Shown: positions 4,563-30,218, counted from the stretch's first letter. The stretch: DNA of 33,593 bases from an uncultured Anaerolineae bacterium (GCA_965370895.1 CBDUWJ010000001.1:1-33593); one strand, 5' to 3'. The notes: generated from the sequence alone by a model not told the origin. Program-made: numbers and translations.

Positions 4563-6326
4563 CTATGTCGTTGGGACCTGAGCCCCGTTGGTTTCTTCCT
4601 GCGACTCGTCCTTTACCCAGGCGAATTTATGCCTGAGCGCCTTGGGATAGTAGCGCTCCAGGACGTCGTAATCGACCTCCTGCCCCCACTCATAGTAGAC
4701 CCGGGGATCGATGTACGATTTGAGGCTGGTGCCCAGGTTCCACGTGCGCTTCTTGGCAGCAATGGAGGCTTGGGCTTTAATCTTGCCCAGGGCCAGTCGG
4801 GCTTTCCCCAACTGCACTTTGGTCCTCTCCACCCGGCGCTCGGCTACCTCGATCCTTTTGCGGTACCGGGCTCTTGTTTTCCCGCGGCTTGCCGGAGAGG
4901 CAGCTTTCTTCTTCTCGCGGGCTTCCACGCGCAGTGAGCTCAGGGCATCCCGGTAGGTACTGACTCGTTCGCGATAGGTTTTCACCCGGTCTTCCGCCTT
5001 CTGTCGCCGCTCTTTGTACCGCTGGCGGCTGCGGGGCCAGCTAGCGGGGGCTTTTTTGGTGTGGTTGCAGAGTACGGCCGCCTCCAGGTTTGCCAGGTTG
5101 GCGGTCTGCCACTTTTTGTGTTCGGGATCGCTGGCCTGGATTACCGATGCCTTCAGTCTATCTCGCGCGGCGATGGTGGCGTGATGAGTGCGGAACACCT
5201 TGGCCGTCAGCCCGGGTAGGACGTCCGACAGGTAAGCGTTGACGTCGCGGCTGCTAATGTCGGGGAAGATCTGGGGCTTGTCGCGCGCGGGACGAGCCCT
5301 GCCCCCACTTCCCCGCGTGTTGGAGGAACGGGCAGAAGCGAGCAACTCCTCCAGATTTCCCTGGACGGCGTGGGGCAGGCGCAGTTTCTTGTGCCACAGC
5401 ACAGAGTCCTTGCCCAGAAACCGGAACTCGGCGATGCCATCGGGACGCAGTGTGACATGCTCCGGACGCAAGGTAGTGGCCCCCACAGTGTCAGCTTCGT
5501 CGGGGTCTTTTTCGTCGCCAACTCGCAGGCAGAGTCGATCAATCAGGTAGCAGGCTGTGGCAATCTTTTTCTGCTTGGAGTCGGGATCGCATAGATCGCG
5601 CTCGATCTGCGACCGGACCGTGCCTATCTGGGCGTGTAGTTCGTGAGCTCTATCGAACTTACGGGCCTCTCGTTTCTGCTTGATGGGCGCGGTATCGCTC
5701 AACCAGACATACTTGAGCTTGCCCGACAGCTTGTCCTTCCAACGCGCCACCCACAATGACTCGGGTTGCCAGACGATCTGACCCCATGCGCCGGGAGGTC
5801 GAGGGGCGTCGGGACTGAGGTTGAGCGTGATATCCTCCTGCCGGGCACCCTCTTTCCATCGCCCGCGGAGGGGATGCTTGCCTCGCCCCATAAAGATGCC
5901 GCTCGGCTCGACCACATAGTTGGCCACCCCGGTTGGTTGTCCGTTCACGGCGGCAGAGCCATGCTGTTCACGAAGCGCTTCGCGCTGGGCTTTGCGCTCG
6001 GCCGCCAATGCCTTGCGCTCCTCCTTGGTCATCTGCGCCTTCGTCTCCCGTTCCGCCTCGACGATCCGGATGACAGGTCGAAAGTCTACCTCATCCGCTG
6101 TCAGCCTCGAGTCAAGGTCCAGCGCCTGGCCAAAATCGGCCATAAAGTTCCTAACAAAGGTCCGGTCTTGGACATAGGGAGTGCCCTGTTTTTTGGCCCA
6201 GGCCAGGGCCATTTCCTCCTGCTTGGGCGTCAGCACCACTGCCCGCCCCTTGATCGTAATCACCAGGCTCAGGGGGGGCGGCGGATTGGGCACTACAACC
6301 CCGTTGTGGACAAGTTGTTGCAACAT
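4563..6326 (-). CDS. eukaryote-type (long) DNA topoisomerase IB with N-terminal DNA-binding core, coiled-coil linker and C-terminal Tyr domain
   Basis: 587 aa, collinear with human Topo I motifs: GIFMGRGKHPLRGRWK, ADTVGATTLRPEHV, FLGKDS, KVFRTHHAT, LCNHTKKAP, LGTSLKSYIDPRV and KFAWV. The Arg/Lys/Arg/His/Tyr pentad is present. Confidence 0.85.
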   Translation of the reverse strand: MLQQLVHNGVVVPNPPPPLSLVITIKGRAVVLTPKQEEMALAWAKKQGTPYVQDRTFVRNFMADFGQALDLDSRLTADEVDFRPVIRIVEAERETKAQMTKEERKALAAERKAQREALREQHGSAAVNGQPTGVANYVVEPSGIFMGRGKHPLRGRWKEGARQEDITLNLSPDAPRPPGAWGQIVWQPESLWVARWKDKLSGKLKYVWLSDTAPIKQKREARKFDRAHELHAQIGTVRSQIERDLCDPDSKQKKIATACYLIDRLCLRVGDEKDPDEADTVGATTLRPEHVTLRPDGIAEFRFLGKDSVLWHKKLRLPHAVQGNLEELLASARSSNTRGSGGRARPARDKPQIFPDISSRDVNAYLSDVLPGLTAKVFRTHHATIAARDRLKASVIQASDPEHKKWQTANLANLEAAVLCNHTKKAPASWPRSRQRYKERRQKAEDRVKTYRERVSTYRDALSSLRVEAREKKKAASPASRGKTRARYRKRIEVAERRVERTKVQLGKARLALGKIKAQASIAAKKRTWNLGTSLKSYIDPRVYYEWGQEVDYDVLERYYPKALRHKFAWVKDESQEETNGAQVPTT

Positions 6327-8302: not shown

Positions 8303-8659
8303 TCAAGGGTTGACGCCCGCCCCGCGCCGGCGGCGCGCCAAACAGCGGATGGCGGTGAACAGAAGCGTGATGGCTGTGGCTGCAGCGAACAGACCCCACA
8401 GGGCCGCAGCCGTTGCATCCCGTATGGCCAAACGACGCTCACCCTCATCGGTTACTTCCACAATGGCCACGGGGATGACTTTGGTAAATCCGCCGGCCCA
8501 GCCGCCGATCCGATCAGAACCTATGGTCGCGCTGGCCTTGCCAAAGGAGACCAGCCGGGCCTCCGGAATCAGCACTCGACCGCCTACGTGGTATGGCTCT
8601 CCACGTACCTCCTGGACGCGAAGCGCTCCCTGCCCGGTGCCCTTACCATCGCATCCCAT
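8303..8659 (-). CDS. GerW/YtfJ-like domain protein with C-terminal TM anchor
   Basis: Only the C-terminal 118 aa of the 487-aa track ORF look real. They read MGCDGKG...GEPYHVGGRVLIPEARLVSFG...KVIPVAIVEV..., followed by the hydrophobic helix ALWGLFAAATAITLLFTAI. ATG 8659 is preceded by GGAGGGAGAG. Confidence 0.55.
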   Translation of the reverse strand: MGCDGKGTGQGALRVQEVRGEPYHVGGRVLIPEARLVSFGKASATIGSDRIGGWAGGFTKVIPVAIVEVTDEGERRLAIRDATAAALWGLFAAATAITLLFTAIRCLARRRRGAGVNP

Positions 8660-8691
8660 TGCTCTCCCTCCAGCCGGTCTATGATTTGCCC

Positions 8692-8720
8692 AGTATAGCA
8701 CAAAACCAGGCCGCCAACAA
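8692..8720 (-). promoter_or_regulatory. putative extended -10 promoter for the GerW-like operon
   Basis: On the minus strand: TTGTTG - 17 nt - TATACT, with TGc immediately upstream of the -10 element. Confidence 0.4.
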
Positions 8721-8744
8721 TCCCCGTGGCCGGTCGCGCTGTGA

Positions 8745-8773
8745 TTGACATAGCGGAGCTCATGGGCTACAAT
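8745..8773 (+). promoter_or_regulatory. sigma70-type promoter for the tandem 4-TM genes
   Basis: TTGACA (8745-8750) - 17 nt - TACAAT (8768-8773). It lies downstream of the track ORF start at 8726, which argues for the ATG at 8813. Confidence 0.6.
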
Positions 8774-8812
8774 AGAAGCGATGTTGCGGAGAAAGACGCA
8801 AGGGGGGGATCG

Positions 8813-9259
8813 ATGCCGCCGATAGCCCGGAGCTTTATCAAAGCCGCGTTTGTCTACTTTGTCGCCGCTTTCCTGCTGGGCGCGCTGATGATGCTCGATC
8901 GCTGGCTGAGTTTCAGCCGGTGGCTCAGGGTTATGTACCTCAGCCAGATGCATCTGTTGGTGGTGGGCTGGATCACTCAGTTGGCCATTGGCGTCGCCTA
9001 CTGGATGTTCCCCCGATTGCGCAAGGAGCAGGATTCCCAGCCCCGGGGATCCGACACCCTGGCCTGGACCACATTCATCTGCCTGAACGCCGGCCTCCTG
9101 TTGCGTTTTGTTTTTGAGCCGTTCTACCTGATGGGGGCCCAGCCCTGGCTGGCGGCGCTGATGGCCCTGTCGGGCGTCTTGCAGGCGATGGCGGCCGTTG
9201 CCTTTGGTCTGCTCATATGGGCCCGTATCCGCCCCATGGAGCTCAAGAGGGAGTCCTAG
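8813..9259 (+). CDS. 4-TM membrane protein of unknown function (paralog A)
   Basis: Start placed at ATG 8813 after an AGGGGGGG SD. MPPIARSFIKAAFVYF aligns with the start of paralog B. Four hydrophobic helices. Conserved block SQMHLLVVGWITQLAIGVAYWMFP. Confidence 0.7.
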   Translation: MPPIARSFIKAAFVYFVAAFLLGALMMLDRWLSFSRWLRVMYLSQMHLLVVGWITQLAIGVAYWMFPRLRKEQDSQPRGSDTLAWTTFICLNAGLLLRFVFEPFYLMGAQPWLAALMALSGVLQAMAAVAFGLLIWARIRPMELKRES

Positions 9260-9268
9260 AGGAATACG

Positions 9269-9739
9269 ATGCCCGTTACGTCGCGGACGTTGATCAAGGC
9301 TTCTATCCTCTATCTCTGTCTGGGCACGATTATGGGTGCCCTCATGTTGGTCGATCGCTGGATTGAGCTGGGACCAGCCATCGCCTACTTGCGGGTCAGC
9401 CACATGCAGGTCCTCATCGTCGGCTGGCTGACCCAGCTTATCCTGGGGGTGGCCTGGTGGCTGTTTCCTACTCTCAAGACTGGCCGGCGCTCCGCTGAGC
9501 CCTTGCCTGCCCGCCGCGGTCAGCTCCAGCGGGGCAACGAACCCCTCTTTTGGGCGACCTTTGTCTGCCTCAACGCCGGCATCCTGTTGCGGGCCATCTT
9601 TGACCCACTCTATAGCTGGAGCAAGGTCGACGCTTTCGGCTTTCTGACCGGCATTTCGGGCTTGTTTCTGCTCCTGGCGGCGGTTGCCTTGGTGGCGAAC
9701 ATGTGGACCAGGGTGCGGGTGCTTGGCCGCGGTAAGTAG
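9269..9739 (+). CDS. 4-TM membrane protein of unknown function (paralog B)
   Basis: 156 aa, starting 9 nt after the paralog A stop, with a GAGGAA SD. Conserved block SHMQVLIVGWLTQLILGVAWWLFP and FVCLNAGILLR (compare FICLNAGLLLR in A). Confidence 0.7.
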   Translation: MPVTSRTLIKASILYLCLGTIMGALMLVDRWIELGPAIAYLRVSHMQVLIVGWLTQLILGVAWWLFPTLKTGRRSAEPLPARRGQLQRGNEPLFWATFVCLNAGILLRAIFDPLYSWSKVDAFGFLTGISGLFLLLAAVALVANMWTRVRVLGRGK

Positions 9740-9796
9740 AACCCGGTCGTCAACGCGCGTGCTCATCCGGATAGGTACGGAGACGAGGAATGCATA

Positions 9797-11325: not shown

Positions 11326-11353
11326 TTGACATGTTGCAGATGTCTGGTATAAT
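11326..11353 (+). promoter_or_regulatory. sigma70 consensus promoter upstream of the 4xCNB gene
   Basis: TTGACA (11326-11331) - 16 nt - TATAAT (11348-11353). GAGGAGG SD lies further downstream, before GTG 11387. Confidence 0.65.
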
Positions 11354-11386
11354 TGCGGGGTGCTCGCGAGGAGGTAACCGACGAGA

Positions 11387-14062
11387 GTGAAATTACGTTA
11401 CGTTGGGAATGCGCCATTCTTCTCTGCCCTGTCGGAGCAGGAACAGGAATGCATTTCCCAACAGATGCACCTGGAACACCGCCGCAATGGTGAGGTTTTG
11501 TTCCAGCCAGGGGACGACAGTACAACTCTATATCTGATCAAATCCGGATGGGTGCGATTGGTCGCTGACGGCGGAGTAGTGCTCGCCAGTCAGGGGCCCG
11601 GAAGCCTGGTGGGCGAGACGGACCTCTTTTTGGAGAAGCCTCGGTCCGTAGGCGCAACCGTAGCTTCTGACGCTGAGCTCTGGGTTCTGACCAGAGGAGA
11701 CCTGGCTGACCTGATCGCGGAAACACCCCAGATTGGCCTGAAACTTGCCCTGGCATTTGGTGGGCGTATTGCGCTCTTTGAGCGCTATCTCTGCGAACAA
11801 CGCCTGAAGCCACTCCCTTTCCTCACTGGTCTGGACGATGAGGATCTAGCGGCCATCGCTCACCGGTTGGTCCCTGTGGAAAAGAAAGAGGGCGAGTTCA
11901 TCGTCGAAGCAGGCCAGCCCCCAGAGGCGTTGTTCATTGTCGAATCTGGTCAGGTGCGCTTACCGAGTTCTGAAGAAGGGGGAGATTTCTCGGAGCTCGG
12001 TGCGGGGGAGACCTTTGGCGAGCTGGCGCTGCTCACTGGCAAGCCGCACGCGCGGTCTGCTGTGGCAGCGACGGATGTGACCCTGTGGGCTTTGCCCGCT
12101 GCCGAGTTCGAGGCGTTGGCAGAAGAGTGCCCCGACATCCGTCTGGCCTTCAGCGAGGCTTTCCGAGAGCCGTTGTCATCGCAGGACCAGAACCAGGCAA
12201 TGGTTCGACTCTCTACCATGCGCCTGTTTGCCGGTCTGTCGGACGAGGCCTTGTGGGCTGTAGCCCAGCGCCTGCTTCTGCGCCACGTGCCAGCCGGTGA
12301 ACAGATCTATGCCAAGGGAGCACCAGGTGACGCTCTCTATCTGATTGACACCGGCCAGGTTGATTTCGTACCCAGTGGACGCACCATGGAGGGCGACGAG
12401 TTCTTTGGCGAGATGGCGCTGCTGACGGGCAAGCCGCGTACCACGGGTGCCAGGGCGACCCAGAACACCAATCTATGGGTGCTCTACCGTTCCGACTTTG
12501 ACGATCTGGTCAATCGTTATCCGGCCATCAGTGTAGGACTGAGCAAAGTTCTCAGCGAGCGGCTGGTCGAAATGGACCGCCGCTTCACCGAGAATCACCT
12601 GCGCGGCTTGAAGTTGCTGGCGGGGCTTTCCTCCACCCAACTGGAAGATGTAAGCCACCGGCTAAAACCGGTCCGCTTCCGCCGGGGAGAAACCATCATC
12701 CGCGAGAGCGGCCCAGGCGATGAGATGTTCTTCATCGAGTCGGGACAGGTGCAGGTAGCTCGGAGGGACGGGGCAGATGCTCTGATCCTGGCTGAGTTGG
12801 CGGCCGGCGACCTCTTTGGCGAAATGGCCCTGCTCACCGGGAATCCTCGGTCGGCCAGCGTGACAGCGCTCAGCGACGTGAACCTGTGGGCCATGTCCCA
12901 GGTCGACTTTGACGATCTGATGATCACCTACCCCAATCTGGCCCTAGCTCTCAGTCGCCTACTGAGCGAGCGACTGCGCAGCACCGACGAGCGGCTCCTG
13001 ACACGAGGGGCCGTGCCGGCCCCGGTCCAGCCCAGGGCAGAGCGTGCAGTACGGCCGCGCCCAGTGGTCGTGCCTGTGCCAAGGGCCCGACCGGCTCCAA
13101 AGCCGCGTCGAGCCGTTCGGCCAAAGCCCGTTGCTCGACCGGCCCGAGCGAAGCCAGCGCGTAACCTCACTGCCGAGTTAAAGGAATGGTTTGGTGGTAT
13201 TGTCGCCTGGTTTGGCAGCCTAAGCCGTGGCGCCAAGGTGCGGCTAGTGTTGGTCAGCACGCTGTTGGCCTGGCTGGTGTTTATCGTCGCGCCCGCCATG
13301 GTCATCTCGACGCTGGCTGCCGAGCAAGTGACCAATCTACAGGGCGCCATCGCCTTTGTGCAGACCACCACGCCGTTGCCCACAGACACACCATTGCCGA
13401 CCAATACACCGCTCCCGCCCACTCCCATCCCACCCACAGCTACGCTCGTGCCGCCCACAGCGACCCCGGTGCCTCCGACGCCCGTGCCGGCCACACCTAC
13501 GCCTGTGCCGCCCACGGCTACTCCGGTGCCTCCGACGCCCGTGCCGCCTACCGCCACCCCGGTGCCGGCCACAGCAACGCCGGTACCAGCCAAGGCGGCC
13601 GCCAAGCCGGCGCCGAAGGCAGCAGCGGCAGCGCAGAGGCCTCAACCACCACGTGACCTCGATCCTAGATTGGATGGGCTGAACGTCAGGATACAGCCCG
13701 CAAATGTCCAGCCGGGACAGAGCTACTGGCGACTGGTAAAGGCCTATTGGCAGAATAAAGAGGAGTCGGGCAACGATCACACGATCTATGTCGAAGTGTT
13801 GGACGAGAACGGTACCCGGCTCGTGGGCCAGCCACTGGAAATGCGCTGGCAGGATGGCAACTTGCCTCTGCTCACCGAGAACAAGCCCCCGCACGAATAC
13901 CCTGTCAACTTTCCCATGTTCGGCACGTTGGGCTCATATTCGGTGAGTATCAATGGCCTGCCCAGTGATACAGTCGTGGGCATGGGTATGGGCACCATTG
14001 AACAACCGGCCTTTACCATTCATACGAACTTTATGCTGACCTTCCAGCGGGTCAAGCGCTGA
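11387..14062 (+). CDS. four tandem cyclic-nucleotide-binding domains + single TM helix + PT-rich linker + uncharacterised extracytoplasmic C-terminal domain
   Basis: The CNB signature recurs four times: LVGETDLFLEKPRSVGA, FGELALLTGKPHARSA, FGEMALLTGKPRTTGA, FGEMALLTGNPRSASV. An Arg/Pro-rich stretch follows, then the TM helix LVLVSTLLAWLVFIVAPAMVISTLAA, then PT repeats, then about 140 aa of unknown fold. GTG start. Confidence 0.85.
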   Translation: MKLRYVGNAPFFSALSEQEQECISQQMHLEHRRNGEVLFQPGDDSTTLYLIKSGWVRLVADGGVVLASQGPGSLVGETDLFLEKPRSVGATVASDAELWVLTRGDLADLIAETPQIGLKLALAFGGRIALFERYLCEQRLKPLPFLTGLDDEDLAAIAHRLVPVEKKEGEFIVEAGQPPEALFIVESGQVRLPSSEEGGDFSELGAGETFGELALLTGKPHARSAVAATDVTLWALPAAEFEALAEECPDIRLAFSEAFREPLSSQDQNQAMVRLSTMRLFAGLSDEALWAVAQRLLLRHVPAGEQIYAKGAPGDALYLIDTGQVDFVPSGRTMEGDEFFGEMALLTGKPRTTGARATQNTNLWVLYRSDFDDLVNRYPAISVGLSKVLSERLVEMDRRFTENHLRGLKLLAGLSSTQLEDVSHRLKPVRFRRGETIIRESGPGDEMFFIESGQVQVARRDGADALILAELAAGDLFGEMALLTGNPRSASVTALSDVNLWAMSQVDFDDLMITYPNLALALSRLLSERLRSTDERLLTRGAVPAPVQPRAERAVRPRPVVVPVPRARPAPKPRRAVRPKPVARPARAKPARNLTAELKEWFGGIVAWFGSLSRGAKVRLVLVSTLLAWLVFIVAPAMVISTLAAEQVTNLQGAIAFVQTTTPLPTDTPLPTNTPLPPTPIPPTATLVPPTATPVPPTPVPATPTPVPPTATPVPPTPVPPTATPVPATATPVPAKAAAKPAPKAAAAAQRPQPPRDLDPRLDGLNVRIQPANVQPGQSYWRLVKAYWQNKEESGNDHTIYVEVLDENGTRLVGQPLEMRWQDGNLPLLTENKPPHEYPVNFPMFGTLGSYSVSINGLPSDTVVGMGMGTIEQPAFTIHTNFMLTFQRVKR
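13364..13590 (+). repeat. in-frame Pro/Thr-rich tandem repeat (57-nt unit, about 2.5 copies, from 13448) inside the 4xCNB gene
   Basis: gtgccgcccacagcgaccccggtgcctccgacgcccgtgccg at 13448 recurs at 13505 with a few substitutions. It encodes VPPTATPVPPTPVP(A/P)T. Confidence 0.8.
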
Positions 14063-14075: not shown

Positions 14076-14114
14076 TAAAAAGGGGCGGACAGACTGTCCG
14101 CCCCTTTGCCTTTT
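14076..14114. terminator. bidirectional rho-independent terminator between convergent genes
   Basis: ATAAAAA-GGGGCGGACAG-A-CTGTCCGCCCC-TTTGCCTTTT. Perfect 11-nt arms, with an A-run on one side and a T-run on the other. Confidence 0.8.
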
Positions 14115-14193
14115 GCACCGCTTTCGCAGACATGCCAAGCTACCCCACCGCAGACAGAGCATCCGAAGGCAACCACGATGGTCTCCCGCGGCG

Positions 14194-17124
14194 TCAGTGC
14201 ACCAGGCTGATTTTCGTGTCCAGCAGAAGATGGTCCCCCAGCGCCTTACCCATCTCGTCCAGGATGGGCAAACGCTGCCCCGTCGCCCCCTGATACATCC
14301 CGATCTCGACAACGTACTCGCCTGGCGGGGCATCGGCGCTGATCGGGATTTGGTATTGATCCACGATCACTTCCTGCGATACCCAGCCGGTCGTCGGCAG
14401 GGCACCTCCGCCGGGCACGTTGTCCTTCTGCCCCCAGAGACGTGCGTTCCCGTCCAGCAGATGGGTAAAGACGGTGTAAGAAATATCGCCCTCGGTCACG
14501 GCTTGCCAATAGAGGGTCAAGTGCAGAGTCTCACCAGGCCTGACCTGCTCTTCTCCCAGATCGTAGCCCAAGAACCGGATCTCCTCCCCCAGTTGGGCGA
14601 CCTGCGGATGGCTGATAGCCGGCACCTGGAACAAGCGGCCTGGTCCCTGGACCTCTACCCATCCTAGTTTTGCCGGGGCCAGCCTGCCGGATTCGGTCGC
14701 CGCCAGTTGTACCACCAGTTGGTACTTGCCCGCTGACATGTCGGGGGCTAGCCTGAGGTCATGCCGGTCCCGCCAGAGGTCATTGGCCTGCCACTCAGAC
14801 GTGGGGTAGGCGGGCCCTTCAGCCCACTCGGCCGCCACCTCTCCTCCCTCGCCAACCAGTTGCATGATCACGGTATAATCGCGGGCGATTTCTGCCTGGG
14901 CGAGCCAGTAGAGAGCCAGGTACATTGTCTCACCGGGGCCGACCAGCTCCCGATCCAGACTATAGCCCACCAAGTCCAGGTCGGGGGCCAGATGCACCTC
15001 GGCTAACGGCACCTCCGGCTCCACAGCGCCCCGCCGCCACGGCCTGTTGATTTCTACGGGGCCGAGGGCTAGTCTATCCCCGACGGGCACACCCTCCTCG
15101 TCCATGAGCTGGACCTGGGTCAGGGTTTCGGGGTCATAAAGGGCCAAATAGAGCTGATAGGTGCCTGGTACGGTAGCAGGTAGGGTGGGCAGCAGGTGAT
15201 AGCTGGTCACCACCTGGCCTGGCTCCCACCGGCCGGTTGCTTGGTGTTCGTTGGACAACAGCCAGGTGTCAGACTGGCCAGCCAGGTGCCCCTGTTCGTC
15301 GAACAGTCGCAGAGAAGCCTTGTAATCGTGGGCCGGCGCTTGCTGGGTCTGCCAGCGTAGAGCAATCAAAGTCGTTTCGCCCGAGGGGGTACTGGGGTCG
15401 TGGGCCTGGGCCACCAATCTCAGCTCGTGGCCAAAGCTCGCCTGGACTGCGGCAAAATCGAACGGGGCGGCAAAGTCCACGGCAGCAGAGGGAAGCTCGT
15501 ACGTGACGATTCGATAGCCGCGAAAGGCCCTCTCCTCGACTTTCTGGCCGAACTTTTCCAGGAAGAAAGGCAGAACCTGGCGGGGATCGGCATCCACGTG
15601 ATTCCCGTGAGTCCAGACGATCAGGTGCACCCGGCTCTTGCCCGCGCTGATGTCGGTCAGATCGCGGGCCACGGTCGCGTCGTCAACAAAGATGTAGTGG
15701 AATGGCACGCTGCTCCGATGCAGCAGCTCCAGAGGGTATTCACGATAGTCCTCACCCCGGCGGTCGTAATTCACAGGAAAGATATAGACCGCCTCGGGGT
15801 CGGTGTCGCGATTGATCTGCTCAGCCAGGTCGGCCATGTGGCCGTAATAGGCATAGTAGACCTCCTCCCGCTGGCGCCAGTCGTCAAAGTAATCATGCCA
15901 GGTGTTGTAGCCTGCCCACAGCAGGTAGAATGGCAGCACCGCCAAGAGCGCCAGCGGGATGGCGGTCCGAAGACGGCGAGAGCGTAGCGGCAGGGGCGAC
16001 AATAGACCGGCCAGGGCCCGCGCTGAGATGATGCACACAACCGGCAGGGTCCCGATGGCGCGCAAGCTGTGAGGGATCGGGTCGGGTGCCAAGATGCTTG
16101 GCAGCAACATGATTAGCCACCACACCACCAGGAAGAGGTAACGCGGCTGCCTCCAGCGGGTCAGGCACAGGACAAGCCCTAGCCAGAACAGAACGGCCTG
16201 CACGAGGTCCAGGCCCGGCCGGCCAGGGATATTGTACACCCAGTTCTCGTCGCCCGCAAAGCCAAAGAGCCCCAGGTTGCCCAACAGGCTGCGTACGAAC
16301 AGCCCTCCCAGGTCCCCCTGATGAAGGTGCGGGTTGAGGATGGACACCCCCCTGGCCCGCAACATAAAGTCCTCGGAGTGAGACACAAAGTAGGTCAACA
16401 GCGGCGCAAAGACCAGCAGGGCCACGATTCCCAGCAGGACCCAGCTACGCCAACGTGGGATGATCAGCTCCCTTCCCTTTCGGGTCAGCAACAGCACGGA
16501 AAAAAAGACGACTAGAACGATGGGCACAAACCGGGCAGAGGTGTATGTATAGAGGCTTAGGCCGAGGAAGAAACCACTGGCAACGTACGCCCCGGGTCGC
16601 CCGGTCCGTACCGCGCGCCACAGAAAGAGGAAACAGAGAACCTCAGTAAGCGGCAGGTAATTGGCGCGGAAACTGAGGTGATTCAAAGCTAGATGCCAGA
16701 AGGAGATGGCTAAGAACAGGGCCGCCAGCAGGGCTGTCACTTGCGCCTTGCGCTTCTCCTCTTCGTCAAAGAGTTCCCGAGCCAGCAGGTAGGTGGCCAG
16801 GACGGTCAGGGTGCCGACGAGGGCAATCGGCAGGCGAAGCGCCAGCAGTGTGGGTCCGAGCAGGGCCACCAGCGGCGCCGCCACGTAGACAAAGAGCATC
16901 TCCCGGCCGTACGACCGCGGAGAGAAGATCATGTGGCGGCCGTCTAGCACGTCCAGGGCATCAAGGGCGGCTGCGGCTTCGTCGTAGTGGGGGCCAGGCG
17001 GCACGTGGCCGATCTGATACAATCGGAAGCAAGCCGCCAGAGCCAGGATAAGGAGTAGGCACGCTACCTCAGCCCAGCGCGGCAGGGGAAGTCGCCACCA
17101 AGTCAATACGCGGCGGATGGCCAT
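14194..17124 (-). CDS. glycosyltransferase family 39 (ArnT/PMT-like) membrane protein with large repeated extracytoplasmic C-terminal region
   Basis: 976 aa. The N-terminal half is polytopic, with an early DEAAAALDALD-type loop typical of GT-C/GT39 enzymes. The C-terminal roughly 400 aa carry three related modules: GETTLIALRWQ..DYKASL, GETMYLALYWLA..DYTVIM, GETLHLTLYWQA..SYTVFT. GGGGGA SD. The gene starts 30 nt after the upstream GH gene. Confidence 0.8.
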   Translation of the reverse strand: MAIRRVLTWWRLPLPRWAEVACLLLILALAACFRLYQIGHVPPGPHYDEAAAALDALDVLDGRHMIFSPRSYGREMLFVYVAAPLVALLGPTLLALRLPIALVGTLTVLATYLLARELFDEEEKRKAQVTALLAALFLAISFWHLALNHLSFRANYLPLTEVLCFLFLWRAVRTGRPGAYVASGFFLGLSLYTYTSARFVPIVLVVFFSVLLLTRKGRELIIPRWRSWVLLGIVALLVFAPLLTYFVSHSEDFMLRARGVSILNPHLHQGDLGGLFVRSLLGNLGLFGFAGDENWVYNIPGRPGLDLVQAVLFWLGLVLCLTRWRQPRYLFLVVWWLIMLLPSILAPDPIPHSLRAIGTLPVVCIISARALAGLLSPLPLRSRRLRTAIPLALLAVLPFYLLWAGYNTWHDYFDDWRQREEVYYAYYGHMADLAEQINRDTDPEAVYIFPVNYDRRGEDYREYPLELLHRSSVPFHYIFVDDATVARDLTDISAGKSRVHLIVWTHGNHVDADPRQVLPFFLEKFGQKVEERAFRGYRIVTYELPSAAVDFAAPFDFAAVQASFGHELRLVAQAHDPSTPSGETTLIALRWQTQQAPAHDYKASLRLFDEQGHLAGQSDTWLLSNEHQATGRWEPGQVVTSYHLLPTLPATVPGTYQLYLALYDPETLTQVQLMDEEGVPVGDRLALGPVEINRPWRRGAVEPEVPLAEVHLAPDLDLVGYSLDRELVGPGETMYLALYWLAQAEIARDYTVIMQLVGEGGEVAAEWAEGPAYPTSEWQANDLWRDRHDLRLAPDMSAGKYQLVVQLAATESGRLAPAKLGWVEVQGPGRLFQVPAISHPQVAQLGEEIRFLGYDLGEEQVRPGETLHLTLYWQAVTEGDISYTVFTHLLDGNARLWGQKDNVPGGGALPTTGWVSQEVIVDQYQIPISADAPPGEYVVEIGMYQGATGQRLPILDEMGKALGDHLLLDTKISLVH

Positions 17125-17154: not shown

Positions 17155-18612
17155 TCATTTGTCCAACGGTGCCAGGTCCCGGTATGCCTTGCGGGGATAA
17201 AACTGGGGGTAGTTGGGCACGGCGATGGACCACCAGTACTGCTCATCGTCCTCCGTCCAATCTACGTTGGGCATATAGATCAGGCTCATGGCGCCGATCC
17301 ATGGCTGCCAGTGCGCTTTGGCGTACTGGTAAGCCCGCACAAAGTAGTCCGCCTGCTGCTCCTCGGTGACTGCGTGCCAGGCATAGGGCGAGTCGGGTCG
17401 TGGGTCCATGGTCCAGCCGAACTCCAGCACCACCACCTGCTTGTCCGCGTCGCCGTTGTCCACCATGATCTGGTGCAGATCCTCGACGTGTCGGAAGCAA
17501 TAGATACGACACGGCGCCCCTGGGCAGTTGGGATCACCCTTGTTGTAGAACTCGGGGTCGTTGGCGACCTCGCCAGGGTCTTTCTCTGGAGGAGCCTTGT
17601 AGCCAGCGCCGTGGACGCCCAGCGCGTCAAAGTAAGGGCGAGCTCCGTCGCCATACATCCGCTGGAGGTATTCGGTATCAGGCATGGCCACGTTGTCCCA
17701 GCGGGTGGTCGGGGCCAGTCCGGCGCTGATGACGATGGCATGTGGGTCTGCCCACTTGATCGCCTGGTGACACGCTTTGAGCAGATCAACGTACCCGGCG
17801 GGATCCGGAGGTTTACCTCCCCATTCACGCTTCAGATTTGGCTCGTTCCAGACTTGATAGGCCGCAATCCGCCCCTTGTAGCGAGACGCAACGGCGTAGC
17901 AAAAGTCAGCGAAATCCTGGTGGTTCCGCGGCGGGCTCATGACAATGTCCTCGGCATTGGGGTAGGTCAGACCACTGGCCCACGCCGGCTCGCTGTCCAG
18001 CCGGGCTATCAGGTGTAGGCCCCCCACACTCTCTACCTGGTCCACGATCCGGTCGGTGACGCTCCAGTCGAACTGACTCTTGCCCATCCCTTCGATCTCG
18101 CGCCAGGGAAATCCCTGCTTGACCCAATTGAACTCAGCATCGCGGATCAACTCCAGGTCACGCTGGGCCACTTCGGCTCGCCACCAGAGGAATGCTTGCA
18201 TGCCATAGTCCGGTGACTGCATCGGCACCGGACCGCTGGGAGCTGCGCTGACCGTGGCCGTGACTTCCGGCGGTGATGTTGTGGGCGCTACCTCGGTCGG
18301 TACTGCGGACGCCGCGGGCGATTCGGCCGTGGGTGAGTAGCTTGGTGCCAGGGTCGCCGTGGGCGTCGTCATGCTGTTCTCGGTAGGCTCTGGCGTGGGA
18401 GTGGTCAATGGAGTGGGGGTGTAGGTAGAAACCAGCGCAGTCGTTGGGGTAGTGGCCGTCACGTCAGCATCAGAGGCTCCGCATGACACCAGGCTTGCCA
18501 CGACAAAAACTGCCGCGATGACGAGCGCTATCCCCGGCACAGGTACAGACAAGGCCAGACCTCTACTGCGCTCCTGTGTATCGGCTGTGGTCTGTTGGTC
18601 TGATTGATTCAT
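17155..18612 (-). CDS. clan GH-A glycoside hydrolase-like protein, probable lipoprotein, with PT-rich linker
   Basis: QVWNEPN and VLEFGW motifs. Paralog of the ORF at 6391-7776. Signal region ends in LVSCG, which fits a lipobox. ATG 18612 with a GGGGAG SD is preferred over the track's TTG at 18639. Confidence 0.7.
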   Translation of the reverse strand: MNQSDQQTTADTQERSRGLALSVPVPGIALVIAAVFVVASLVSCGASDADVTATTPTTALVSTYTPTPLTTPTPEPTENSMTTPTATLAPSYSPTAESPAASAVPTEVAPTTSPPEVTATVSAAPSGPVPMQSPDYGMQAFLWWRAEVAQRDLELIRDAEFNWVKQGFPWREIEGMGKSQFDWSVTDRIVDQVESVGGLHLIARLDSEPAWASGLTYPNAEDIVMSPPRNHQDFADFCYAVASRYKGRIAAYQVWNEPNLKREWGGKPPDPAGYVDLLKACHQAIKWADPHAIVISAGLAPTTRWDNVAMPDTEYLQRMYGDGARPYFDALGVHGAGYKAPPEKDPGEVANDPEFYNKGDPNCPGAPCRIYCFRHVEDLHQIMVDNGDADKQVVVLEFGWTMDPRPDSPYAWHAVTEEQQADYFVRAYQYAKAHWQPWIGAMSLIYMPNVDWTEDDEQYWWSIAVPNYPQFYPRKAYRDLAPLDK

Positions 18613-18818
18613 CGCGCTCCCCAATATTCCCCAGTTCAAGAGATAGGATCCTGGACCAGTAGGTTGCCGGAGGCCCGGAGACCGCCCCAGCGTTTCTCCG
18701 AAGCTACCGCGACTGATGGACCGCTCGCCAGAAGCTGGCTACAGGTTCCATTATAGCTAAGAAGCTGGACCAGGTCAAAAAAGTAAGGCTCTGACATCCG
18801 CCACAGCAATACCCAGAT

Positions 18819-23601: not shown

Positions 23602-25290
23602 CTACTCCTTGCTGCGCTTGTCCAGCTCATAGTACCGGTCCGCCTGCTCCTTGGTAATATAGCCATTTCTGAGATCTTCTTGTACCAACTCCAGGGGGCG
23701 CTCCAGCGGGTCGCCCCAGCCCGCACCTGTGCCGGTCATGACCTGGATGACGTCGTCGGTGTTCAGGGTCAGGCCGCTGATCAAGGCGTAGCGCTCCGTC
23801 TCACCGTTGGCGCGCCTGATCAGCACGTGGTTGGGCGAACCGTACTGACCGCCTCTCAAGGGCCACGGCGGGTTCTTGTCGCGCGTGTAGGCCACCGTCA
23901 GCCAGGCGTCGTCGGACTTGATGCGATAATCGATACGCACACCTTTGCCGCCCCGGTGGAGGCCGGCGCCACCATCCTCATCGTGAAAGCTGAGATAGTC
24001 CACCGTCACGCCGTATCGCGCTTCAGCCACCTCGGCCGGGCAGTTGTAGGTCTCGCCATGCAGCGCAGAGAACTGGCCCGGATTGCCGTCTGAGGTCGAC
24101 GACCCACCCCAGCCACCCAGCTCGGGTTCGATCACGGCATAGCTCCGGCCGGTGTCGGGGTGGATGCCGCCAAACAGCGTGCCACAGACCGACGCGAATC
24201 CGCCCGCGGGCAACCGCTCGGGCATGTGGGGTGCCAGGCAGCGCAAGATCAGATCATGCACCCGGATGGTAATCTCATAGTAGATGCCTTGAGCTGCCGG
24301 GTAGATCGGATCGAAAACGCTTCCGTGGCGCGTCAGGACCTTGAGGGGACGGAAGGTGCCGCCATTGGCCAACCTATCTGACGAGACGATTCCCTTGAAG
24401 GCGATCTGGCAGGCCACGATCGCTTCGTCCCGGCTCATGTTAAAGGGTCCCTTGTCCTGGTCCGGATTGTCGCGGAGATCGATGATAAACTCGTCATCCC
24501 GGATCTCGATCGTGACGTGATAGTCCGGTCCGGCATCCTGGGGCTCCACCAGGGTGTACTTGCCCTTGGGCAGGCGTTTCAGCGCGGCCAGGGTGACCTG
24601 CTCACCATAGTCCAGGTACTCTTCCACGGCGTGAAGAAAGACGTCCTTCCCGTACTTGTTCACGATCTCCAGAACGCGGCGCTCGCCGACGCGGGCCGAA
24701 GCCACGCCAGCCCACAGGTCGCCTATCAGGAAATCGGGCATGCGGCAGTTTGAGGTGAGGATGTCAAAGACCGACCGGATGGGCTCGCCCCGAGAAAAGA
24801 GCTTGATGCCAGACAGGATCATGCCCTCCTGGAAGATCTCGGTCGCGTCGGTGGACATGCTGCCCGGCACCATGCCCCCCACGTCGTTCCAGTGCGCGAT
24901 GTTGGCCGTCCAGGCAACGATCGCAGGCTCGCCCTCCGCCTCGTCTCCGGCAAAGACCGGCATGGTCAGGATCACGTCGTTCAGGTGCGTCACACCACCA
25001 GAGTAGGGGTCATTGGTGATAAAGATATCGCCTGGCTCGATGTCGCCCGGCTGGTCAAACTTCTTCATGACTTGCTTGACGGTCTTGTCCAGAACGCCGA
25101 CAAAGGCCGGGATTCCGGCCCCAGAACCGGCCAGCTCACCATTCTTGTCGGTGATGCCGGTGCCCATGTCGAGCACCTCGTAGATGATGGCGCTCATGGC
25201 CGTGCGGCGCAGGGCGGCAAACATCTCGTCGGCGGCCGCCTGCAGCGAGCTCTGGATGATTTCAATCGTAATGGGATCATACTTGTTCAT
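23602..25290 (-). CDS. hyuB: hydantoinase B / oxoprolinase family protein
   Basis: 562 aa. The N-terminus DPITIEIIQSSLQAAADEMFAALRRTAMSAIIYEVLDMGTGITD is the Hydantoinase_B signature. GGAGGA SD. Confidence 0.85.
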   Translation of the reverse strand: MNKYDPITIEIIQSSLQAAADEMFAALRRTAMSAIIYEVLDMGTGITDKNGELAGSGAGIPAFVGVLDKTVKQVMKKFDQPGDIEPGDIFITNDPYSGGVTHLNDVILTMPVFAGDEAEGEPAIVAWTANIAHWNDVGGMVPGSMSTDATEIFQEGMILSGIKLFSRGEPIRSVFDILTSNCRMPDFLIGDLWAGVASARVGERRVLEIVNKYGKDVFLHAVEEYLDYGEQVTLAALKRLPKGKYTLVEPQDAGPDYHVTIEIRDDEFIIDLRDNPDQDKGPFNMSRDEAIVACQIAFKGIVSSDRLANGGTFRPLKVLTRHGSVFDPIYPAAQGIYYEITIRVHDLILRCLAPHMPERLPAGGFASVCGTLFGGIHPDTGRSYAVIEPELGGWGGSSTSDGNPGQFSALHGETYNCPAEVAEARYGVTVDYLSFHDEDGGAGLHRGGKGVRIDYRIKSDDAWLTVAYTRDKNPPWPLRGGQYGSPNHVLIRRANGETERYALISGLTLNTDDVIQVMTGTGAGWGDPLERPLELVQEDLRNGYITKEQADRYYELDKRSKE

Positions 25291-25302
25291 GTGCAGTCCT
25301 CC

Positions 25303-27354: not shown

Positions 27355-27392
27355 GTTGAACCCCTCTCTTGATCTTGCTCTCTGTCCATTGC

Positions 27393-28205
27393 TCAATCCT
27401 CTTTCTTTTGCGCAGCCTTGCTCGCTCTCAGTAGCCAGCCTCCCATATCGCGGTAGTCATACTGCCGCTCAAGCCGCCACGGCCCGAACTCGCCTGGCGG
27501 CGGTGACTCGTAGCCCCCAACCTTGCTGTGACTCCATCCGAACCGGTTCTTCAGATCGGCTGCGAACTCGGCCGTCTTGAAGGCGGCGATCATCGAATCG
27601 ATGACCGGCACGCCCAGTTCCTCCTGCAGCACGCGGTAGAAGCCATAGGTTGCCGTGCAGCCCAGGACGAGTACCTCTGCGCCATCGCGATCGATGGCTT
27701 CCCGTCCAACCTGGATGAAGCGACGGGCGGTCTCCTCCTCGTCCTGGTGGAACTCGAGCACGCCCAGATCCACCGCCTTGAACGAGGCCAATCGTTCCTT
27801 CATGCCATAGCGGAGTGTGTTCTCCATCATCTCTGGGATCCACTTGCGCCGGCCCACGATGATAGAGAACTTGTCGCCAAGAGTGGCGGCAATGTGCACC
27901 GATGCCTCACAGGGGGCAACCACCACCATGCGTTCGGCTACCTCCCGGGCCGCTTGCAGCCCCACATCGTAGAAGCAGCCGATGACCACCGCATCAAACC
28001 CCTGCTGCTCGGCTTCCATGACCAGGTGCAGAATGTCGACCAAGACCAGGGCCTCATAGTAGCGGTACTCCAGGTGCTCCGGACCCCGGGGCAGGGTGAC
28101 CATGGTCAGCTCTGTCGACTCCTGCTTCTGCCTCGAGAGGAACTCGTGTCCCTCCGCCACCACTTCAACGCCCACAGGGTCAATGTACAGGATCTTTTGC
28201 ACCAT
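27393..28205 (-). CDS. Asp/Glu/hydantoin racemase family protein
   Basis: About 270 aa. VVIGCFYDVGL and VLVLGCTATYGF are the two Cys-containing half-site motifs of this racemase family. ATG 28205 is preceded by AAGGAGGG. Confidence 0.75.
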   Translation of the reverse strand: MVQKILYIDPVGVEVVAEGHEFLSRQKQESTELTMVTLPRGPEHLEYRYYEALVLVDILHLVMEAEQQGFDAVVIGCFYDVGLQAAREVAERMVVVAPCEASVHIAATLGDKFSIIVGRRKWIPEMMENTLRYGMKERLASFKAVDLGVLEFHQDEEETARRFIQVGREAIDRDGAEVLVLGCTATYGFYRVLQEELGVPVIDSMIAAFKTAEFAADLKNRFGWSHSKVGGYESPPPGEFGPWRLERQYDYRDMGGWLLRASKAAQKKED

Positions 28206-28233
28206 CTCTCCCTCCTTAGCCACCATGCTCCGC

Positions 28234-29232: not shown

Positions 29233-30218
29233 CTGGCATCACCCCCGTACAGGAAGCAAGCGACCTCGTGGTCATCGCCGAGTGCATAGAACGCCGGTTT
29301 CTTCTGCCGGCAGATATCCATTGCCTGGGGACAGCGCGGATGAAAGCGGCACCCAGTTGGCGGCTTTATGTACTCGGGAATCCGTCCTGGAATGCCGTCA
29401 GAAACGCCGCCTCCTGTCAGCCTGGGGACAGCCTCCATCAGACCGCGGGTGTATGGGTGCGATGGATTGGCGAACAGCTCTTGTGTGCCCGCGACCTCGA
29501 CCATGTTGCCCGCGTACATGACGTAGACTCGGTCGGCGATTTGCCGCACGACCCCCAGGGTGTGCGTAATGAGAATGACAGAGACGTTCTTTTCCTCCAC
29601 TAACCCGTGGAGGAGCCTCAGGATCTGATCCTCGATGGTCACATCCAGCGAGGTGCCTGGCTCGTCGGCGATGAGCAGCTCGCGACTGGCGACCAGGGCC
29701 ATGGCGATGCAGACCCGCTGGCGCATACCACCGCTGAGCTGGATCGGGTAGCTGTCCAGCATGCGTTCCGGGTCGGGCAAGGACACCTCTCTCAATGGGA
29801 TGAGCGCCTGCTCCCGGATCTGCTTCTTTGACAGTTTCTTACCCCCCGCGGAATACTTGACCACGGCACTCAGTTGCTGGCCTACGGTAAAAACAGGGTT
29901 GAGGGCCGCCGTCGGATCCTGAAAGATCATCGAGATGCCTTCGCCCCTCACTTTCCTAAGTTCATTCTGCCCCATCTTTAGGACATCCTGACCCTTGAAA
30001 AAGATCTCTCCGCCCACGATGCGAGCGGGAGGCATGGGCAAGATGCGCAGGATGGCCTTCATCGTTGTCGTCTTGCCACAGCCGGTTTCCCCGACGAGGC
30101 CGACTTTTTGTCCCTTTTGCACGACAAAGCTAACGCCGTCCAGGACCTTCAGTGTACCGCCATAGACATCAAACTGGACCTGCAGGTCTTTGATCTCCAG
30201 CAAGGGTTCGCTGCTCAT
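29229..30218 (-). CDS. ABC transporter ATP-binding protein (DppD/OppD-like)
   Basis: Walker [10 protein letters not shown], signature [15 protein letters not shown], Walker [16 protein letters not shown] 30218 ([12 protein letters not shown]) follows a GAGGAGG SD and is preferred over the track's GTG at 30260. Confidence 0.9.

Follow-up and report, generated by a model that had tools for sequence, protein, structure and literature searches.

PKA-R lacks a catalytic domain and acts through protein binding that is switched by cNMP, and the PKG of Plasmodium mixes competent and degenerate sites among its cNMP-binding (CNB) domains. Single-pass Ser/Thr kinases can be driven by extracellular domains, PASTA among them. 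Chloroflexota are abundant filamentous bacteria of sludge, sediments, and soils, most of them uncultured, and to our knowledge cyclic-nucleotide signaling in this phylum is essentially unstudied; a literature search covering the architecture described below, four-CNB bacterial proteins, and a link between ECF sigma factors and cNMP in Chloroflexi yielded nothing relevant. We analyzed a 33,593-nt stretch of DNA from an uncultured Anaerolineae bacterium (the window; GCA_965370895.1 CBDUWJ010000001.1:1-33593), which encodes a protein with four tandem CNB domains. The closest solved relatives of this CNB array, by sequence (E ~1e-23) and by fold, are PKA-R (RI/RII) and PKG. The best fold match is the four-CNB region of Plasmodium PKG (E = 1.7e-33 over ~514 columns), although the inter-domain geometry of the window model does not superpose on it (TM 0.24).

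The gene (CDS, 11387..14062, + strand, from the ORF list) has exactly the coordinates and strand first assigned to it, starts with GTG, and encodes 891 aa arranged as four CNB domains, a spacer, one transmembrane (TM) helix, a PT linker, and a C-terminal domain (CTD). The consensus promoter attributed to it by the preliminary description is indeed present: a sigma-70-type element at 11326..11353 (+ strand; TTGACA-16 nt-TATAAT with an extended -10 TG) matches the consensus at 12 of 12 positions, and two TTGACA/TATAAT-type sites were observed in the region versus 0.6 expected from shuffles. A Shine-Dalgarno sequence, GGAGG, was read at 11370..11374 (+ strand), 12 nt 5' of the start codon. The same description had also given the gene its own terminator, which is only partly right because the hairpin, though present, is shared and bidirectional. 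The terminator-like site (14077..14115, with no strand assigned; hairpin 14082..14104) consists of GC-rich GGGGCGGACAG-A-CTGTCCGCCCC between an A-run and a T-rich tail, lies between the CNB gene and a convergent PMT_2 gene, and is common to both; the terminator scan scored it on the minus strand only, and its plus-strand tail is TTTGCCTTTTG. No genes are co-transcribed with the CNB gene in the window, and an Rfam search around it returned no Rfam element and no riboswitch. An exact lookup of the 891-aa protein found no identical record, and ENA holds an 893-aa protein (P0184) that is 98% identical. Public annotation of the family proteins consists of "CRP-like cAMP-binding protein" and nothing more, a label that misleads as to function by implying a transcription factor.

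The cytoplasmic part was delimited with Pfam and an AF2 model. Pfam cNMP_binding (PF00027; gathering cut-off, 27.5 bits) matched four stretches of the window protein (267 bits, E = 5.2e-81), and AF2 folded four CNB domains across aa 1-539, in agreement with the number originally described; the inter-domain arrangement in the AF2 model is uncertain (pTM 0.56). The domains, all on the + strand, are CNB1 (11387..11761, aa 1-125), CNB2 (11771..12160, aa 129-258), CNB3 (12179..12586, aa 265-400), and CNB4 (12599..13003, aa 405-539). The combination of a ribose-contacting Glu and a phosphate-contacting Arg-(Ser/Thr) in the phosphate-binding cassette (PBC) was found in CNB1 (aa 75-91, VGETDLFLEKPRSVGA; Glu77 and Arg86-Ser87), in CNB3 (aa 340-356, FGEMALLTGKPRTTGA; the canonical FGEMALLTGKPRTT at nt 12404-12454, with E342/R351-T352), and in CNB4 (aa 477-493, FGEMALLTGNPRSASV; the canonical FGEMALLTGNPRSAS, with E479/R488-S489). 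It is absent from CNB2 (aa 210-226, FGELALLTGKPHARSA), which has Glu212 and in which His221 replaces the phosphate-binding Arg. The first copy had been called degenerate, which is not the case at the contact residues; the copy without the Arg is CNB2. A census of PBC residues in 61 family members gave, for CNB3, Glu in 59/61, Arg in 58/61, and Thr/Ser in 42/61, and CNB3 is also the most conserved of the four domains. The CNB1 Arg is kept in nine of the 61, including the window protein. CNB2 has Arg in none and Glu in 11, and the wider clade of the window conserves its His221 at 90% or more. CNB4 retains Glu in all 61 members, with Arg in 11, the window protein among them, and His in 43; Arg488 is at least 90% conserved in the window's clade. 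On the basis of these patterns, CNB3 is the only predicted cNMP site conserved family-wide, CNB1 and CNB4 look competent for cNMP binding too in the window's clade, and CNB2 is a degenerate copy, more likely with a structural or docking role. Judged by these residues, the expectation of four nucleotide sites thus holds for three domains of the window protein, but not for CNB2, and across the family for CNB3 only.

Between the array and the membrane lies an Arg/Pro-rich disordered spacer (13004..13165, + strand, aa 540-593; AF2 pLDDT ~40), which is unconserved across the family (mean top-residue frequency 0.26, 37% gaps). An RRAV motif within it was considered as a PKA-like pseudosubstrate and rejected because the spacer is unconserved. 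A juxtamembrane helix follows (13166..13225, + strand, aa 594-613; placed by AF2 at aa 594-610) and bears a conserved WF(G)xLSxxxK motif in which W608 and L612 are at least 95% conserved. The single TM helix (13226..13318, + strand, aa 614-644) has a Kyte-Doolittle peak of 2.48, coincides with an AF2 helix at 614-644, and contains Pro636, which is also at least 95% conserved; each of the 61 members examined has one hydrophobic segment. Beyond it lie an outer juxtamembrane segment and then a Pro/Thr/Ala-rich repeat linker (together 13319..13642, + strand, aa 645-752), the DNA of which is repetitive (period 21/57 nt at 13433..13584, TRF). Across the family the outer linker measures 113-177 aa with a P/T/A/S fraction of ~0.57, and the segment immediately after the TM helix is conserved. 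From the conserved WFxxLS motif, Pro636, and post-TM segment it is clear that the membrane region is constrained, which could reflect real transmembrane signaling or contact with another membrane protein. Mean net charge in the 61 members is +4.8 in the 40 residues preceding the TM segment versus -1.3 following it, a bias from which the positive-inside rule predicts an N-in/C-out topology with the CNB array in the cytoplasm. AF2, the TRF repeats, and the charge bias together support the layout proposed at the outset, in which the Arg/Pro spacer, one TM helix, PT repeats, and an outer C-terminal domain follow one another.

The CTD (13643..14059, + strand, aa 753-891) is modeled by AF2 as an all-beta sandwich with a pLDDT of 93.7 and belongs to no named family. 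Searches of this ~140-aa region with Pfam and NCBIfam gave no match, Pfam on 22 CTD members gave nothing consistent below E = 0.01, and comparison with PDB sequences gave nothing significant by phmmer or by profile (nothing below E = 0.5 for the latter). Foldseek, the check suggested in advance for the CTD model, returned no significant match in the PDB (best E = 3.7e-3, TM ≤0.42) and nothing significant among viral structures in BFVD (best E = 0.027), so that the inability to assign the CTD to a family persists. A weak, generic beta-sandwich likeness to CnaB, transthyretin, and carboxypeptidase regulatory domains was seen (TM 0.35-0.42). Homologs of the CTD are numerous (1,313 cluster representatives at E ≤1e-3, or ~1,300 clusters at 50% identity), and the CNB module is absent from 127 of the best 150 representatives. 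The CTD was found fused to Pkinase plus FHA, GSDH, DUF5107, GH5 cellulase, N-acetylmuramidase, and InlB B-repeats, and it also occurs on signal-peptide lipoproteins and sugar dehydrogenases. One Pkinase-FHA Ser/Thr kinase, P0146, carries it at the C-terminus behind a hydrophobic segment and a PT linker. The CTD is thus a widespread, portable extracytoplasmic module. Because it occurs on lipoproteins, glycoside hydrolases, a muramidase, sugar dehydrogenases, and a receptor kinase, guilt by association predicts that it most likely binds glycan or cell wall, and once its ligand is defined, many envelope proteins would gain an annotation in one step, including the receptor kinase, wall hydrolases, and lipoproteins.

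The architecture of four CNB domains, TM helix, and CTD recurs in at least 531 clusters at E ≤1e-60, with lengths of 870-980 aa. Sixty full-length GTDB loci with the same domain order, all from Chloroflexota, encode proteins 36-68% identical to the window protein, and the closest database proteins are 70-98% identical. Among cultured relatives, Caldilinea aerophila and Litorilinea aerophila each encode a member of the family. As judged by these comparisons, the CNB gene is not an isolated oddity and belongs to a large, conserved, Chloroflexota-specific family. It shows vertical conservation phylum-wide and stable synteny of a housekeeping type. In most family loci the gene is next to a divergent pair of ECF sigma and anti-sigma genes and to a lipoprotein gene whose product bears a paralog of the CTD module. 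In 52 of 56 loci, the gene upstream in the operon encodes an envelope lipoprotein with the homologous module (SH3_3 lipoprotein module versus CTD: hhalign, 96%, E = 2.6e-9). The link of the family to the ECF sigma cluster is ancestral; the ECF/lipoprotein linkage has been lost in the window's clade, and no ECF sigma is present in the window. The CNB protein was rejected as the cognate anti-sigma of the ECF sigma because the latter has its own zf-HC2-type anti-sigma (downstream of it in locus L010); Pfam and NCBIfam found no N-terminal anti-sigma domain in the CNB protein, such as the zf-HC2 of class I anti-sigma factors. Conserved p245 and p113 neighbors and a ~494-aa convergent gene have no Pfam or NCBIfam name, and a signal peptidase-like ORF, present in nine loci, is the sole protease seen among the conserved neighbors.

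Cyclase families are absent from the 31 ORFs scanned in the window, as had been stated, and the suggested survey of homologous neighborhoods revealed no cyclase as a conserved neighbor across the 60 related loci. The window contains no kinase genes, and Pfam and NCBIfam detected no kinase, cyclase, channel, or HTH in the CNB protein itself, in accord with the preliminary description of a protein devoid of such outputs. The ORFs that flank the gene in the window are all missing from the 60 GTDB loci of the family, and conservation of the neighbors does not extend beyond the window's own clade. The adjacent convergent PMT_2 glycosyltransferase gene occurs as an insertion in the window only; glycosylation of the PT linker by PMT_2, as a conserved partnership, was dropped for this reason.

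The reading that we favor, at somewhat less than even confidence, is that of a wall- or glycan-anchored, PKA-R-like cNMP receptor or scaffold that acts via protein-protein interaction or localization. Its outer half would be a flexible, PT-rich stalk bearing a novel beta-sandwich module. The TM helix and this module may anchor the protein to a given site in the envelope, where they might also cluster it, and cNMP occupancy of the CNB array would switch the binding of a putative cytoplasmic partner in the manner of PKA-R. The data show the architecture, the topology bias, how far the sites are conserved, how the family is distributed, and which domains accompany the CTD; the ligands on either side, the existence of the partner, and the direction of information flow are what we infer. 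Tethering and clustering are proposed because long disordered linkers join both halves to the TM helix. Rigid conformational transmission across the membrane looks unlikely because of the ~55-aa disordered, unconserved spacer and the 113-177-aa outer linker, and tethering, localization, or clustering is more plausible. The protein would thus serve as a cNMP receptor or scaffold with its anchor built in, and would not transduce signals allosterically across the membrane. The original proposal had a nucleotide controlling something outside the membrane, or the reverse; its topology fits, but the disordered linkers on both sides weaken direct coupling. A bolder elaboration, which we consider doubtful, likens the protein to AKAP-bound PKA-R: a new type of bacterial second-messenger device, wall-anchored and membrane-tethered, with CNB3 as its true site and three degenerate CNBs, would capture or release an effector at envelope sites of filamentous Chloroflexota, maybe with release of the protein by intramembrane proteolysis in an ECF-sigma stress circuit, and the CTD would be a new glycan- or wall-binding family that receptor kinases and wall hydrolases share.

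Two alternatives keep signal transfer across the membrane. An outside-in receptor, in which wall fragments or polysaccharide bind to or cluster the CTD, shift the oligomeric state, and alter the cNMP affinity of the CNB array or its partner binding, is unlikely in our view. The CTD on the Pkinase-FHA protein P0146, the motifs conserved on both sides of a TM helix with an invariant proline, and the ancestral linkage to an ECF sigma/anti-sigma envelope-signaling cluster are all consistent with it, but the protein has no enzymatic output to modulate, both membrane sides carry long disordered linkers, and no dimerization element was found. The opposite direction, which was the first option of the original proposal, follows the logic of LapD: cNMP binding would change what the CTD binds or sequesters, for example the paralogous module of the neighboring SH3 lipoprotein. 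We judge it less probable than the outside-in route. The topology would allow it, and the upstream lipoprotein with its homologous module in 52/56 loci is compatible with heterotypic contact outside the membrane; however, the unconserved spacer and the length of the PT linker make mechanical coupling implausible, Pfam and NCBIfam detected no HAMP or other transmission module, and the lipoprotein partner is gone from the locus in the window's clade.

The remaining alternatives concern the fate or the competence of the CNB array. The protein could be a pseudo-receptor whose CNB folds bind no cNMP, or bind another small molecule as in CooA, NtcA, and CprK, and serve only as a cytoplasmic scaffold. 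Three of the four CNB sites are degenerate in most of the family and no locus links a cyclase to the gene, yet the Gly-Glu...Arg-Thr/Ser signature of CNB3 is kept in ~95% of members and the window protein has three intact signatures, which leaves this reading improbable, slightly more so than the LapD-like one. We give still less weight to a substrate of regulated intramembrane proteolysis, in which envelope stress would cause first the outer part and next the TM helix to be cut, and the soluble four-CNB module, released into the cytoplasm, might act as a cNMP buffer or regulator. This reading is an analogy only. Class I anti-sigma factors have the same single-pass N-in topology, the TM helix contains an invariant Pro that would break a helix, and the ancestral position is beside the ECF sigma/anti-sigma pair; against these stand the lack of a conserved neighboring protease besides the signal peptidase-like ORF and the pairing of the ECF sigma with its own zf-HC2 anti-sigma. 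A Pycsar-type antiphage effector, a CNB plus TM protein activated by cCMP or cUMP, has been effectively refuted and was rejected. The protein does have CNB domains and a TM helix, and PADLOC models of PycTIR and effector match it (E = 8.5e-41), but the matches reach no further than the CNB region of those models (e.g., positions 30-142 of 288), no TIR domain is present, a cyclase is neither adjacent in the window nor a conserved neighbor, the conservation is vertical and phylum-wide with housekeeping-type synteny, and the outer binding module is foreign to Pycsar effectors. The family that we favor as anchored receptors is a phylum-wide conserved candidate cNMP receptor without an output domain, and its partner would therefore reveal a new bacterial cAMP/cGMP effector route.

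Set against known systems, the window protein has the tandem CNB-A/CNB-B arrangement of PKA-R, with CNB domains that fall in the same subfamily; it begins at CNB1 and has no dimerization/docking domain, conserved inhibitor site, or known catalytic-subunit partner. Unlike PKA-R and PKG, it is membrane-anchored with an extracytoplasmic domain and carries no fused kinase. It shares the CNB fold and the Glu/Arg-Ser PBC with CRP/FNR factors but differs in having no HTH, four CNBs instead of one, and a place in the membrane; NCBIfam CRP/FNR models match the CNB part only (111 bits versus a cut-off of 266). The MlotiK1 and SthK channels likewise have a CNB domain on a membrane protein, and their PBCs are near that of CNB4 (E ~1e-12 to 1e-13), whereas they have a six-TM pore and the window protein has one TM helix with the CNBs N-terminal to it, an outer globular domain, and no ion-channel Pfam family. 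LapD, as an analogy only, is also a non-catalytic cytoplasmic nucleotide receptor joined to an outer protein-binding domain, but it responds to c-di-GMP, a different nucleotide, through a different fold, and the window protein has no HAMP or GGDEF/EAL and has disordered linkers. Like CBMs and transthyretin-like/CnaB beta-sandwiches, the CTD is a ~140-aa all-beta sandwich, PT-linked to glycoside hydrolases and a muramidase, but none of the named families matches it significantly in sequence or fold. The overall layout is that of the PknB/PASTA-type kinases, with a cytoplasmic signaling module, one TM helix, and one or more outer binding modules; here the outer module is the CTD rather than PASTA, and the CNB array stands in the place of the kinase.

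The CNB gene lies at 11387..14062 on the forward strand, exactly where the preliminary description had placed it, and encodes an 891-residue protein from a GTG start with a Shine-Dalgarno sequence (GGAGG) 12 nt ahead on the same strand. The claimed consensus promoter was found at 11326-11353 (12/12 match to sigma-70, plus an extended -10 TG). The terminator assigned to the gene is present as a GC-rich hairpin (14082-14104) with an A-run and a T-rich tail on its flanks, but it is not private; because it serves the convergent gene too, it is a bidirectional terminator-like site. Pfam recognized the four tandem CNB domains (cNMP_binding four times, whole-protein E = 5.2e-81, 267 bits versus a 27.5-bit cut-off) and no other notable domain, and the NCBIfam models for Pat, CRP, FNR, and encapsulin 2B aligned with the CNB parts only, at scores far under their cut-offs. 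All four are genuine CNB-superfamily domains, with their phosphate-binding cassettes (PBCs) at residues 75-91, 210-226, 340-356, and 477-493. In an AlphaFold2 model of residues 1-660, for which the input included 40 family members, these domains were well folded (block pLDDT mostly 80-93), residues 540-593 were disordered (pLDDT ∼40), and a helix (594-610) and a long helix (614-644) followed. Hydropathy analysis of 61 aligned family members gave a single hydrophobic segment in each (61/61), in agreement with the one TM helix described; the mean net charge was +4.8 in the 40 residues before this segment and -1.3 after it; under the positive-inside rule, the CNB array is therefore cytoplasmic and the C terminus external. 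The PT repeats are genuine at the DNA level (13433-13584, period 21/57 nt). Long ORFs in other frames also cover the spacer and PT linker (12928..13605 and 13337..13894 on the reverse strand, 13186..13656 on the forward strand); their translations are low-complexity Gly/Arg/Thr-rich strings, and these ORFs arise artefactually from repetitive, GC-rich coding DNA, being seen again in relatives only because the repeat itself recurs.

This protein is no orphan. A word-indexed search with the full protein returned at least 531 family clusters at E ≤ 1e-60, all of 870-980 residues with PF00027 as the sole annotated domain and with database names no fuller than "CRP-like cAMP-binding protein" or "cyclic nucleotide-binding domain-containing protein." A scan of GTDB (one genome per species) with the C-terminal domain (CTD, residues 753-891) gave 138 loci, and all 80 that were retained belong to Chloroflexota, chiefly Anaerolineae and Caldilineaceae; at 60 of the 80, the CTD closes a full-length ORF with the identical order of four CNB domains, TM helix, linker, and CTD. 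Identity to the window protein is 70-98% for its nearest database relatives and 36-68% for the 60 GTDB family members, so that an Anaerolineae origin of the window is all but certain.

Across the 61 aligned members, we counted the ribose-contacting Glu and the phosphate-contacting Arg of each CNB domain. CNB3, which has the highest overall conservation among the four, carries the Glu in 59/61 and the Arg in 58/61, with Thr or Ser next in 42/61. The Glu of CNB4 is invariant (61/61), with Arg in 11/61 and His in its place in 43/61; CNB1 has Glu in 50/61 and Arg in 9/61 (otherwise His, Gln, or Tyr), and CNB2 has Glu in 11/61 and Arg in none (Tyr or His). Judged from these residues, the family would possess one universal site, two clade-specific sites, and one permanently degenerate copy. 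The window protein belongs to a minority clade that retains both residues in CNB1, CNB3, and CNB4, and within this clade His221 (CNB2), Arg351, and Arg488 are each at least 90% conserved. The degenerate copy is therefore CNB2 and not CNB1, as had been stated, since the key contacts of CNB1 are intact; apart from this and the terminator, two small corrections, the earlier observation was confirmed. The position following the Arg is Thr in CNB3 and Ser in both CNB1 and CNB4, which, in our judgment from known PBCs, does not decide between cAMP and cGMP. By sequence, the CNB module is nearest to PKA regulatory subunits and PKG, and its best fold match was the four-CNB regulatory region of Plasmodium PKG (E = 1.7e-33, ∼514 columns), at a global TM-score of 0.24 that reflects agreement of the single-domain folds and a different mutual arrangement.

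The CTD was modeled confidently by AlphaFold2 (mean pLDDT 93.7, pTM 0.89) as an all-beta domain of nine strands. The preliminary description could assign it to no family, and we likewise found no match to a well-known one in Pfam, in PDB sequences (phmmer or profile), in PDB folds, or in BFVD; the closest PDB folds were CnaB, transthyretin, and carboxypeptidase regulatory-type sandwiches (best E = 3.7e-3, TM 0.35-0.42). A full HMMER scan of 1.84 billion representatives with the CTD profile yielded 1,313 proteins at E ≤ 1e-3, of which 794 reached E ≤ 1e-10. Among the best 150 of these 1,313, only 23 contain the CNB module, 19 carry two or three CTD copies, and 112 have the CTD at the extreme C terminus. 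In P0031-P0033, it is preceded by a signal peptide bearing a lipobox Cys and by a PT linker, and in P0028 by DUF11-type repeats; it also occurs with glucose/sorbosone dehydrogenase (P0042, P0153, P0165), DUF5107 (P0036, P0102), a GH5-type cellulase (P0077), N-acetylmuramidase (P0110), InlB B-repeats (P0083), and, in P0146, a Pkinase-FHA protein that continues through a hydrophobic segment and a PT linker to a C-terminal CTD. PT-linked beta-sandwiches on glycoside hydrolases or wall hydrolases are typically substrate-binding modules; from these fusion partners and that precedent, we infer a glycan- or wall-binding role for the CTD by association. Some 7 kb from P0031, a CTD lipoprotein that stands alone, a Candidatus Aquidulcis MAG (L001, 15474..16708) carries the characteristic genes of a diversity-generating retroelement, namely those for bAvd/23S_rRNA_IVP and a reverse transcriptase.

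Across the wider family, the CNB gene occupies the second position in an operon of two genes. A ∼486-residue SH3_3 lipoprotein is encoded directly upstream on the same strand at 52 of the 56 loci with enough upstream sequence (median gap 76 nt), and hhalign detects distant homology between the C-terminal domain of this lipoprotein and the CTD (probability 96.2%, E = 2.6e-9, 93 columns). An ECF sigma factor gene diverges from this operon at 48/51 loci. Most family loci (L003-L082) read zf-HC2 anti-sigma and ECF sigma in one direction and SH3_3 lipoprotein and four-CNB protein in the other, as at L010 (219..3631) and L039 (695..3574); at L010, the upstream gene is exceptional, a small TM protein with a beta-sandwich-like C terminus replacing the lipoprotein. 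Since the ECF sigma factor of L010 is followed by its own zf-HC2-type anti-sigma, we ruled out the CNB protein as the cognate anti-sigma. About half of the loci, mostly of Caldilineaceae, additionally carry two nameless genes downstream in the opposite orientation, p245 (∼245 residues; L050 7339..8076, reverse strand) and p113 (∼113 residues; L062 7183..7524, reverse strand); neither has a Pfam or NCBIfam match. No cyclase was found among the conserved neighbors of family loci, nor, as had been noted, in the window (31 ORFs scanned).

These conserved neighbors are absent from the window (tblastn, four queries, none at E ≤ 0.1), where the gene order is EamA (reverse), DinB_2 (forward), CNB gene (forward), a PMT_2 glycosyltransferase (reverse), and a ∼494-residue protein (reverse), with a PhaR-type gene farther along. 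Relatives at 70-77% identity (P0188, P0189, P0191, P0196) share this context with two exceptions: P0196 lacks DinB_2, and the PMT_2 gene was inserted in the window. In a neighbor-joining tree, the members with this context form one clade nested within the ECF-linked members, which indicates that the ECF/lipoprotein linkage is ancestral and was lost in the window clade; the CNB gene of this clade now has its own strong sigma-70-type promoter. The convergent PMT_2 gene (14194..17124, reverse) encodes a 976-residue GT-C type membrane glycosyltransferase with three repeat modules at its C terminus; a weak tblastn echo of the CTD motif inside it (14842-14943, E = 0.08) is probably due to chance. 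The ∼494-residue protein (17155..18639, reverse), with a faint GH42 match and no family name in Pfam or NCBIfam, is encoded by the sole gene consistently convergent with the CNB gene across the clade.

Elsewhere in the window, 4563..6326 (reverse) encodes a 587-residue long-form, eukaryote-type topoisomerase IB (Topoisom_I_N, E = 1.3e-49; Topoisom_I core, E = 1.8e-60; Topo_C_assoc, E = 8e-14) in bacterial DNA, and the gene recurs in the related contigs L084 and L086. One report (PMC2621148) credited bacteria only with the shorter enzyme and described the eukaryote-like long form from Thaumarchaeota. Two adjacent small ORFs with weak, sub-threshold COX1 similarity (8726..9259 and 9269..9739, forward) are kept as separate genes in the same two contigs and so are probably small membrane proteins rather than a broken oxidase gene; a 487-residue ORF opposite them (8303..9766, reverse) looks spurious. 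The reverse-strand run at 23602..33539 encodes hydantoinases B and A, an Asp/Glu/hydantoin racemase, and an ABC transporter of the Opp/Dpp type specified by five genes; it has the look of a routine metabolic cluster with no connection to the CNB gene.

The CNB protein thus combines a cytoplasmic PKA-R/PKG-type array having at least one conserved canonical site with one TM helix in N-in/C-out orientation and a portable beta-sandwich on the outside, and it has no catalytic or DNA-binding domain. Beyond this architecture, we infer its function. The spacer between array and membrane (∼55 residues) is modeled as disordered and lacks conservation (top-residue frequency 0.26, 37% gaps), and the outer module is carried on a PT/A-rich linker of 113-177 residues; with two such floppy linkers, rigid piston or scissor transmission from nucleotide site to outer domain is unlikely. 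By analogy with PKA regulatory subunits, we tentatively propose, at somewhat under even chances, an anchored cNMP receptor with a partner-binding switch. The protein would be anchored at a wall or glycan site, and perhaps clustered, by its TM helix and outer module; occupancy by cNMP, mainly of CNB3, would switch the binding of a putative cytoplasmic partner, and the degenerate copies could act as docking surfaces. The alternative that the protein is a pseudo-receptor is weakened by the conservation of CNB3, and we regard it as very unlikely.

Counting against the anchored receptor is the constraint on the membrane region, namely a juxtamembrane WFxxLSxxxK motif, Pro636 in the TM helix (at least 95% conserved), and a conserved post-TM segment, which leaves three other readings open. 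Outside-in clustering, which is favored by the fusion of the CTD to a kinase in P0146, is unlikely; inside-out control, whether the target is the outer module or the paralogous lipoprotein, is quite unlikely; and intramembrane proteolysis is even less probable than a pseudo-receptor. A Pycsar effector is effectively excluded, because the PADLOC matches are confined to the CNB part of the models and both a cyclase and a TIR domain are absent.

The cNMP receptor fold is familiar, but literature searches found no description of four CNB domains joined through a TM helix to an outer module; their combination with a single helix, a novel outer module, and no output domain is undescribed, as is the CTD as a family. 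The four-CNB membrane protein is real and more than a curiosity: its family offers a tractable entry point to cNMP signaling in Chloroflexota, and the CTD defines a sizeable nameless family of extracytoplasmic domains. Among known systems, the protein differs from CRP/FNR regulators in having no HTH and from CNG channels in having one TM helix, and its identification as an anti-sigma factor or a Pycsar effector was rejected. It resembles single-pass receptor kinases in layout and LapD only in abstract logic. Although it is not an orthologue of PKA-R, having no docking domain, inhibitor site, or kinase partner, it is like PKA-R in its tandem CNB domains, its lack of catalytic output, and its proposed partner-binding logic.
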